From positions 40,612,001-40,676,000 of the forward strand of contig OZ076409.1 of NCBI GenBank assembly GCA_964187785.1: a DNA stretch of 64,000 bases, in the 5' to 3' direction. Under the pieces are notes generated by a model. It was not told where the DNA came from. It worked only from the letters and a program-made list of their open reading frames with translations, and did no database searches. Made by a program: the position numbers and the translations under genes. Below are positions 42,163-44,396 of this stretch, piece by piece (within the stretch, counting starts at the first letter, position 1; each line of letters begins with the position of its first letter). This DNA is from Amphiscolops sp. MND2022 (Eukaryota).

Positions 42163-43701
42163 TCAGTTTACTCCGGAAGTCTTCACGATACTGTCTGCTT
42201 TCTGGGAATTGGTTGGTGCGCCGATGTTCCCACTGGAAGTATCCTCTTTCCTTTCTGGTCGACTGCCGTCCGACCCTGTACCGGTCATCTCTTTCATCTC
42301 GGTATTGTTGGTTTCCTCCACAGTGCTATCGCCTGTCCGGCCTACAATCACCTTCCCTTTTTCCTGGGCACGCTTGCATGGGCAAAGGGTAAGCATCATC
42401 TCGAAAAACTGTCGGGGCCCCAGGTAGATCATCACTCCGACAACCGCTAAGAGGAAAAGTGCCAACAGCGTCAACAGGACAGTGCCAACCACCGGGTGTG
42501 CCACTTCTTTCCAATGGAACGGTGCATGTCTTTTCAGGATGGCTTCCGCAAAGGGACGGGAAATCTTCTTTAGTTCCTCATCGTCAATTTCGTCTTCCGG
42601 TAGCTCGATTAAGTTCATTTTCAGGCCTTTTAACAGGTCTTCATGAGCCACCGCTCTATATTCCTTTTTAAACTTCCAATCCGGATTCTGCTCTTGAATT
42701 TCCTCGAAGAGTGTAAACATTGAGGCCAACACGGTATTCTGTTTAATCGTTATATGCAGGCCTGCTTCATGATGACACTTCCTGGGGTCTGGGTTGAGCA
42801 CTAGGCTTCCATCCGGGGTCTCAATGCGCCCATTGCAGGCTGGCCGAAGGAGGCAACTCTTACATCCGCGGATCCTTTCCCCTTCAACGGCTCGTCCTCC
42901 CGTGTAGTTATATAGTTGGTAGGCAGTACTTCGAGATGTCAACAAATAGGTGGAATCACCCAGGTATTCAGCTACTGGCTCTTCCGGTAGCGCCACCACT
43001 TCTTGAGGGCATAACTTCAGTGCAGTATTCTGGAGGTTAAAAAACAGGCTCGCCAGGCAGGAGGACTTACTGCTCCGTGACATTGCTACTGGTCTTAAGC
43101 ATAATCTGAGTCTCGATGTTCCCTGGCAGTGGGTGGTCAGTTGTTGTTCCGTAGCCTCCGCAAAACTATCTCTCCTATTCGATTGCAGGAACTGGTTTTG
43201 TTTGAAAATGTATCTAGTGGCTGTGTTACCATCATCGATCGGCTGGGGGATCGCCACAGCTTTGTACACTCGATATGCGCCGCTCGCAAAATGCATCCGA
43301 ATATTTAATAGTACGTTTATAGACTCGTCTGTCAGGACCACGTTTTCCACCAGTTCGAATCCGTAATACGCCGATAATTCAGTTCGGGGAATCGCCTCTT
43401 GCATTCCGTCTACTTGAATGTTGTTCAGTACCTTCAGGAGTGCCTTGGGAGGAATAAGGGCTGCTGGGATGAATCCCTTCGCTAGCGCAGCCAAAGCATC
43501 GTCCAGAACATATCCGAAGTTGTGAAGACCCACTTGATAATCCAAAATTTCTGCCAATAGTGTATCAAAGTATTGCGTGTGATTCATCATGGAAAGCGTC
43601 CACTGTGCAGCCTCGACAAATTCCCTCTCGCGCTTCCCGCAGATGTCGGTGATCTTGTCCCAGGAGGTTCCGTCTGACAGTCGATTAAATACTGCCCTCA
43701 T
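42163..43701 (-). CDS. env: Env C-terminal part: F-type ectodomain, TM helix, tail (copy 1)
   Basis: GFIPAALIPPKALLKVL motif and Cys spacing typical of baculovirus F / errantivirus Env; TM segment VVGTVLLTLLALFLLAVVGVMIYL. Confidence 0.85.
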   Translation of the reverse strand: MRAVFNRLSDGTSWDKITDICGKREREFVEAAQWTLSMMNHTQYFDTLLAEILDYQVGLHNFGYVLDDALAALAKGFIPAALIPPKALLKVLNNIQVDGMQEAIPRTELSAYYGFELVENVVLTDESINVLLNIRMHFASGAYRVYKAVAIPQPIDDGNTATRYIFKQNQFLQSNRRDSFAEATEQQLTTHCQGTSRLRLCLRPVAMSRSSKSSCLASLFFNLQNTALKLCPQEVVALPEEPVAEYLGDSTYLLTSRSTAYQLYNYTGGRAVEGERIRGCKSCLLRPACNGRIETPDGSLVLNPDPRKCHHEAGLHITIKQNTVLASMFTLFEEIQEQNPDWKFKKEYRAVAHEDLLKGLKMNLIELPEDEIDDEELKKISRPFAEAILKRHAPFHWKEVAHPVVGTVLLTLLALFLLAVVGVMIYLGPRQFFEMMLTLCPCKRAQEKGKVIVGRTGDSTVEETNNTEMKEMTGTGSDGSRPERKEDTSSGNIGAPTNSQKADSIVKTSGVN

Positions 43702-44396
43702 CGAAAGTTTTCGTTAGCGTCTTTTGCCAACACTCGGACTCTTCCTTGAGTTCGGTTCAAAGAGTGACCCAACAGGTGTATTCTCTCTCCAGTTTCCAAA
43801 GTGACCGTTCGGGCGAGATCATCCACTTCTGATAGTCGTTTGGCCAATTCGTCATATTTACCCGAGTCCCCACACATGAAGGTGAAAGGACAAAAATCGT
43901 CCAAAAAGCGAGGTAGTAGAGTGATTGCGGCTGCCGTGGCAGCCACTCCGGCCAACAGTACCGTCAAAGCTCCTCGTCTGTCCCTGTCCGGATGAATGTC
44001 CCTGTGCCTTTTGAAGGTCTGTGCCCGCTCGCGCATCTCTGCCAAATCGTCCATTACCTCCAGGTATGCCTTCTCGACGTTTTTCAGGCCCAGAAAAGTC
44101 ACATTAAATGTGGCATCCGTGATCTCTTCATTTGCGCAAATATTCCCTCCCCAGGGTTTCCACGATTTACGGGATTTATACTGGAACTCTTGGAAAACTA
44201 TATCCAGGTGGGTGACATTGAGGGCTGGCGGCGAAGGGAATGGTATAGTTATCCATGCTGCCTCCAGTGAACTGGCTATGATCACAGGCGGTTCTGGGGT
44301 GAATACTACTCCAGCAGTGTTGTTATATGTTAAAGTGTTTGCCGTTGGGAAGCCCCAACAAACGAGCAAAAGAAGCGAAAGAAGTTTTAGTATCAT
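43698..44396 (-). CDS. env: Env N-terminal part: signal peptide, furin site, fusion peptide (copy 1)
   Basis: MILKLLSLLLLVCWG signal peptide, N-glycosylation sequons, RDRR followed by hydrophobic GALTVLLAGVAATAAAITLL and a heptad-like stretch. Confidence 0.85.
   Translation of the reverse strand: MILKLLSLLLLVCWGFPTANTLTYNNTAGVVFTPEPPVIIASSLEAAWITIPFPSPPALNVTHLDIVFQEFQYKSRKSWKPWGGNICANEEITDATFNVTFLGLKNVEKAYLEVMDDLAEMRERAQTFKRHRDIHPDRDRRGALTVLLAGVAATAAAITLLPRFLDDFCPFTFMCGDSGKYDELAKRLSEVDDLARTVTLETGERIHLLGHSLNRTQGRVRVLAKDANENFR

Follow-up and report, generated by a model that had tools for sequence, protein, structure and literature searches.

The env gene on the minus strand at 44396-42163 very probably belongs to a recently expanded Ty3/gypsy retrotransposon family with an F-type Env (F-Env), and was frameshifted here before the whole element was duplicated in tandem. 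The window, which is the whole 64,000-nt stretch of Amphiscolops sp. MND2022 DNA analysed here, holds two copies of this gene that are 99.8% identical. An ORF scan of the window resolves env into two minus-strand ORFs that lie in different frames and overlap by a few codons; the features of each were determined on its own. Natural relatives encode the same protein in one uninterrupted frame, and the class of the protein can be assessed on these intact siblings.

Organization of the env gene

44396-42163, minus strand: env as a whole, the third ORF of a Ty3/gypsy LTR retrotransposon (gag-pol-env)
43698..44396, minus strand: env 5' ORF as called, 232 aa from the ATG at 44396 (open frame 43698-44408), with the hydrophobic leader, F2-like subunit, furin site, fusion peptide and the beginning of the HR1-like helices
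42163..43713, minus strand: env 3' ORF as called, 516 aa from stop to stop, with the remaining F1-like ectodomain, Cys-rich beta core, HR2-like helices, TM helix, CPC and a disordered tail
43698..43713, minus strand: frameshift break (the zone of ORF overlap), the same in both array units and absent from all 11 listed siblings whose sequence covers it
54279..56512, minus strand: second env copy with the identical break, four substitutions and no indel away from the first

The first-pass annotation had already described a split envelope gene at this position, and the ORF scan, hydropathy and an alignment of homologues bear out both its coordinates and its features. The second copy, and the reading of the split as a lesion, are additions to it. 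Residues 1-20 are hydrophobic (KD peak 1.89), which agrees with the proposed signal peptide as far as hydropathy goes. The proposed furin site is the single RxK/RR site of the protein, at 138-141, and the fusion peptide corresponds to a hydrophobic stretch directly behind it (141-165, KD 2.21). The Cys-rich ectodomain that had been noted is seen as eight cysteines within 425-542, and the TM helix with its juxtamembrane CPC as a membrane anchor at about 635-669 (KD 2.86, by hydropathy only) followed by cysteines at 673/675; the 3' ORF has nine ectodomain cysteines in addition to the strong TM segment and the CPC. Both the N-terminal and the anchor segment are helical in the model of an intact sibling. 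The heptad-like region was also recovered, since the a/d positions of the sibling helices are enriched in hydrophobic residues (0.50-0.67 vs 0.14-0.31, as the best of seven registers and without a shuffle control). The G.IP..LIPP..L..VL motif is present as described, its strict pattern matching 17 of the 53 aligned homologues, and the joined length estimated earlier at about 744 aa compares with 745 aa in the natural siblings.

The 53 aligned homologues have a mean column identity of 20%; four core positions do not vary and another 13 hardly do, most of these being Cys, Pro or Tyr. The cleavage site could be evaluated in the 34 that are long enough, of which 27 have RxK/RR and 31 have RxxR. 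Judged from this alignment, the conservation of the env features is not due to chance.

A search with the env 3' ORF returned 21 proteins, and the best of these is a natural, uninterrupted protein of 745 aa with 99% identity. Its cluster contains 23 members (44 for pol). Among the 15 listed, ten are 745 aa long, an 11th reads across the break site, and four begin downstream of it. The env 5' ORF is 99% identical to residues 1-232 of the 745-aa siblings and the 3' ORF 96-99% identical to residues 233-745. The first window copy retains all of the cysteines of the intact sibling (15/15), and the furin site and fusion peptide of the window copies are identical to those of all ten full-length siblings. 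By these sequence comparisons env belongs to a multi-copy family that expanded recently and in which intact and Env-null copies coexist.

Wider searches place env mainly among eukaryotes. A HMMER scan gave 312 more distant env representatives at E<=1e-3, and the ESM Atlas taxa for the three best env clusters are 93-97% eukaryote; the ESM Atlas features for env are F-type-like, with a weak recognition score below threshold. Together with the type of element, these taxa suggest an invertebrate genome. None of 48 pattern matches in a viral contig collection is a relative, and the 191 pattern matches in JGI metagenomes include one fragmentary relative at 39% (L001). Exact look-up of seven window proteins in a protein collection found one, the other six being absent from it.

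The LTR element and its tandem array

44858..49120, minus strand: pol, intact, 1420 aa, PR-RT-RNaseH-IN in the Ty3/gypsy order by Pfam
49039..50082, minus strand: gag with one CCHC knuckle (zf-CCHC), by ORF and Pfam
50143..50154, minus strand: PBS, tRNA-Asn-like, one base past the LTR end, repeated about 12.1 kb further on, adjoining 62274
38037..40790, minus strand: 3' LTR of about 2.75 kb, with a firm end at 38037 and a tentative start at 40790
50156..52909, minus strand: LTR common to both tandem units, far boundary tentative
62274..64000, minus strand: truncated at the edge of the window; either the 5' LTR of the second unit or the terminal part of a third

The array consists of at least two full elements in head-to-tail order at 38037-64000 (minus strand), with a unit of 12.12 kb. 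Positions 38036-51881 match 50155-64000 at 99.77%. The first 12.1 kb contain 22 substitutions, and the units also differ by indels at homopolymer-rich spots. Neither unit has a stop in gag or pol. The two genes overlap by 82 nt in different frames (49039-49120, minus strand) with a slippery-type heptamer near 49069, which is consistent with ordinary ribosomal frameshifting, and pol is separated from env by 461 nt. The Pfam scan of the array pol gave no dUTPase match. Among named records, the closest in RT are arachnid, mollusc and nematode entries at about 50% identity. Rfam and ARAGORN scans returned nothing.

The 3' end of the LTR recurs at 38037, 50156 and 62274, and at the latter two it is followed by one base and then the PBS, which differs at one or two positions from the Asn_GUU 3' 12-mers that the supplement of PMC13524379 lists. 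The candidate start at 40790 is a TG after a 12-nt purine tract, and two of ten such tracts nearby precede a TG. From these repeats, the LTR has a length of 1.73 kb or more unless the array includes a third unit. A 222-bp LTR from 38258, which has the best inverted-end match (8/10), was rejected, as no purine tract precedes its start. The duplication arose most simply by recombination between LTRs, since a layout with a shared middle LTR is the expected outcome of ectopic LTR recombination, from which tandems with shared LTRs are described to arise (10.1101/158386).

The element has the layout of an F-Env Ty3/gypsy retrotransposon, with an LTR, a PBS, gag, a PR-RT-RH-IN pol and a downstream F-type env. 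The uninterrupted env by which PMC13524379 recognises intact elements is present in ten of the 15 listed siblings and in neither window copy.

Among the relatives of the array pol, P0274 and P0277 (71% identical in RT; two of 120 listed) carry GDSL lipase/esterase domains. One of these GDSL-bearing relatives was deposited as a bacterial MAG and is probably mis-binned eukaryotic DNA. GDSL cargo has also been reported for rotifer elements (PMC5408684).

The frameshift break

The siblings align to the env 5' ORF over 1-232 and to the 3' ORF over 233-745. Because they abut both halves with nothing extra between, the split is a frameshift and neither an intron, which is ruled out, nor a trait of the family. 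Besides the break, the two units have in common three residues at which they depart from most siblings. The frameshift lies upstream of most of the ectodomain and of the anchor, so cell-to-cell spread is unlikely for both window copies. To judge from the reading frames, these copies most likely produce no working Env and are probably Env-null retrotransposons.

On the simplest account, env was frameshifted once, near residue 232/233, in a young copy, and the element was then duplicated head to tail. The window copies could yield only an unanchored 232-aa piece of Env. They keep intact gag and pol, and may therefore move within the cell or borrow Env from their siblings. Eight of the 23 cluster members are outside the 15 listed and four of the listed members start beyond the break, so the break may occur in further copies.

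It is improbable that env is intact in the organism and that the break is a consensus error of the long-read assembly. There is a 4-nt homopolymer at the break, other homopolymer-rich spots show indels between the units, and related clusters contain many fragmentary sibling proteins, all of which would suit such an error. However, the identical break occurs in two units that are otherwise 22 substitutions apart over 12.1 kb, gag and pol are free of stops, and both accessory ORFs have the same length in both units. Moreover, 11 near-identical siblings read through the site, and the error would have to strike both units and leave these siblings untouched.

A programmed split, in which ribosomal recoding, stop-restart or splicing would give either full Env or two products (for example a secreted 232-aa decoy), is very unlikely. 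The two ORFs do overlap, the stop of the 5' ORF overlapping an ATG of the 3' ORF, and both halves are still open, but copies only 0.2% apart are too young for open halves to indicate selection. The gene is a single continuous ORF in all 11 of the listed siblings that span the site and in the aligned full-length homologues, the halves have no sequence between them that the sibling lacks and hence no intron, and the 3' ORF is without an N-terminal hydrophobic leader. A frameshift in one young copy, later duplicated with its element, remains the preferred account of both window copies.

Fold and class of Env

The fold was examined on the natural intact 745-aa sibling, using AF2 with the 53-sequence alignment. 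The model has a pLDDT of 79.6 and a pTM of 0.69, with low confidence only at the cleavage loop, the fusion peptide and the tail. In the PDB, Foldseek found 222 matches at E<=1e-3; the 42 shown are without exception paramyxo- or pneumovirus F proteins (Nipah/Hendra/RSV/hMPV/PIV/mumps-type F), with Nipah F the best at E 1.2e-9 and TM-scores of 0.19-0.31 by query length. In the BFVD viral library the model matches the Hubei myriapoda virus 8 glycoprotein (1e-20), a granulovirus F (1e-16) and a nucleopolyhedrovirus F (2e-16), as well as glycoproteins of chu-, arli- and lispiviruses and paramyxovirus F0. The top VIA-align matches are measles and RSV F (Z 9.7, 338-389 residues aligned, rmsd 6.8-8.8), and unrelated helical bundles reach Z 9.4 over about 150 residues. 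The fold matches are partial, with TM-scores of 0.2-0.45 and high rmsd, and the F matches cover the whole ectodomain (about 26-630 of the model), including the beta core. Identity in the structural matches to baculovirus F, arthropod RNA-virus glycoproteins and paramyxo-/pneumovirus F is 7-14%.

Sequence methods give a weaker signal. Pfam Baculo_F (PF12259) matches the env 3' ORF at 19.7 bits (E 3.7e-4), which does not reach the gathering cut-off of 24.1; at E<=0.1 it matches five of 15 aligned members, and the intact sibling is without a match. PDB sequence searches with the env 3' ORF and with the env profile retrieved no F protein. By score, therefore, the Env sequence is outside Pfam Baculo_F, and none of these searches points to a special closeness to baculovirus F. 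A trimer prediction for sibling residues 22-330 scored 0.00 with an uncertain fold and speaks neither for nor against a trimer.

The sibling fold model and the fold search support a predicted class I F-type fusogen. This upholds the earlier proposal of a class I fusion protein, for which the sibling fold, the F-protein matches in Foldseek and BFVD and the weak, sub-threshold Baculo_F match all speak; similarity to class I fusion proteins was found by Foldseek, BFVD and VIA-align alike. The label "Baculovirus-F/errantivirus-type" from the first-pass annotation needs to be divided: its second half holds for errantivirus in the broad sense (PMC13524379), and for its first half the structural matches, spread over several groups of viral glycoproteins, single out no special closeness to baculovirus F. 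That the product is only a fusogen-like membrane protein (a helical bundle with a TM segment) with some other role would fit the low TM-scores, the Pfam score below cut-off and the high VIA ranking of coiled-coil proteins, but is hardly credible given F matches that span the ectodomain at about 26-630 with the beta core, and a furin site, fusion peptide and core cysteines that are conserved across 53 homologues at 20% mean column identity.

Proposed function of the intact Env

As a class I F-type fusogen, the intact 745-aa Env would be a type I membrane glycoprotein with the class I F fold. If it behaves like RSV/paramyxovirus F and the Env of Drosophila gypsy and Tor, it would pass into the ER and form trimers. 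A furin-like protease would then cut it at 138-141 and expose the fusion peptide, and refolding of the heptad helices would bring about fusion between the target membrane and a Gag-Pol particle or a host cell. Env may plausibly carry the element from soma to germline in this way, and cell-to-cell spread by the intact siblings is plausible on the same analogy. The route of spread is unknown for most non-Drosophila elements according to PMC13524379.

Comparison with known elements

F-Env Ty3/gypsy elements are an already described, metazoan-wide class (PMC13524379, PMC5408684, PMC4402516), and the window family is a further member of it. Chary and Hayashi (eLife, PMC13524379) report 1,512 env-carrying Ty3/gypsy elements across metazoans. 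Their 'ancient errantiviruses' share with the window family the gag-pol-env order, the Ty3/gypsy pol, the F-fold ENV with signal peptide, furin site, fusion peptide and TM, and the presence of many near-identical copies, and a tRNA-Asn PBS is also reported there for two rotifer ENV_F elements. The window copies differ from the elements described there in the broken env, the tandem array, the probably long LTR and two extra ORFs, one of them antisense. Three short env motifs were not found in the supplements of that paper, which may hold no protein sequences.

The TelKA env of a bdelloid rotifer (PMC5408684) is likewise an ORF3 product of class I F-like type, with an RXXR site, fusion peptide, coiled coil, cysteines and TM. 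It is described as about 600 aa long with an HHpred match to Pfam Fusion_gly, whereas the env of the window family has 745 aa and a weak Baculo_F match. The related Tor Env has been shown to be membrane-located and glycosylated and to give products of a size that fits furin cleavage, and it is expressed next to primordial germ cells (PMC4402516). The F-X-G fusion tripeptide reported for Oikopleura Tor3b/Tor4b (PMC4402516) is not found directly after the cleavage site in the window env.

Drosophila errantivirus Env-F and baculovirus F (PF12259) are also F-type class I fusogens, although the window-family Env matches the Pfam family of baculovirus F below threshold and is about 12-13% identical to baculovirus F in structural alignments. 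The domain order and fold are shared with paramyxo- and pneumovirus F (RSV, hMPV, Nipah, measles); in contrast to these, the window-family Env is retrotransposon-encoded, has a longer ectodomain and no partner attachment protein identified, and is 7-13% identical.

The Env-null state of the window copies is known from Drosophila lineages (PMC12992720). In a Drosophila errantivirus clade, infectivity is reported to have been lost while retrotransposition continues, and Env loss to have been accompanied by a shift to germline expression (PMC12992720). A young family with intact and Env-null copies offers a natural observational test, outside insects, of whether the loss of Env accompanies a shift towards germline expression. 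The env gene adds one well-populated family to the metazoan-wide class, and the defective copy by itself changes little.

Accessory ORFs

39894..40757, plus strand (second copy 52014-52877): antisense accessory ORF, 285 aa, by ORF call and relatives
40927..41475, minus strand (second copy 53046-53594): low-complexity, charged ORF of 182 aa downstream of env, open in both units

The antisense ORF is found at full length in relatives with 64-68% identity, in a cluster of 22 members. It has a weak Integrase_H2C2 match below cut-off (best E 0.0018), with His64/His69/Cys99/Cys102. Further motifs around Cys164 and His273 are present in 15 and 17, respectively, of the 18 relatives checked, and may resemble those of OTU proteases. 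Pfam and PDB sequence searches with this ORF gave no match to an OTU protease, and the ESM Atlas no usable match. The AF2 model is of low confidence (pLDDT 39), with no Foldseek match at E<=1e-3 and a best VIA Z of 4.5, and neither supports nor excludes an OTU fold.

The relatives of the antisense ORF include five apparent same-contig pairs of overlapping antisense ORFs, excluding a possible pair from the window, and the 15 listed env members show no such pairing. As an indirect sign, this fits two antisense copies per element, inside the LTR, and the ORF probably lies within the long LTR as far as the repeat boundaries indicate. The plus-strand poly(A) hexamers of this ORF (40820, 40829) lie outside the candidate LTR, which counts against antisense expression from both LTRs. 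The 182-aa ORF, without a match in Pfam, converges on the antisense ORF, and poly(A) hexamers occur on both strands at about 40813-40834.

A wider reading, which we consider doubtful, is that the array represents an uncatalogued recent F-Env Ty3/gypsy radiation whose LTR of about 2.75 kb would carry an antisense gene for an HHCC plus OTU-like protease, with a counter-defence or regulatory role and transcription starting in the 3' LTR. In this the array would be comparable to complex vertebrate retroviruses, which have antisense genes of their own. Should the LTR-borne ORF indeed encode a protease, it would stand out among the accessory genes of invertebrate retroelements as unusual. None of the titles listed by a literature search showed an LTR retrotransposon with an antisense OTU gene, and absence from print is not claimed.

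Other features of the window

The ORFs scanned in the flanks of the array include no host gene. A separate gypsy-type element, frameshifted and env-less, lies at 14946-20847 on the minus strand, with LTRs of about 195 nt that are 98% identical and a 5-bp target-site duplication. Its RT is about 27% identical to that of the array element. A decayed retroelement remnant at about 29000-32200 on the plus strand (RT_RNaseH match, E 3.9e-5) is related to this 15-21 kb element and lies in the opposite orientation. The window also contains near-perfect palindromes or inverted repeats at 228-464, 12983-13402, 21322-21483 and 24029-24242, with arms of 80-118 nt and spacers of 0-2 nt, which appear MITE- or foldback-like.
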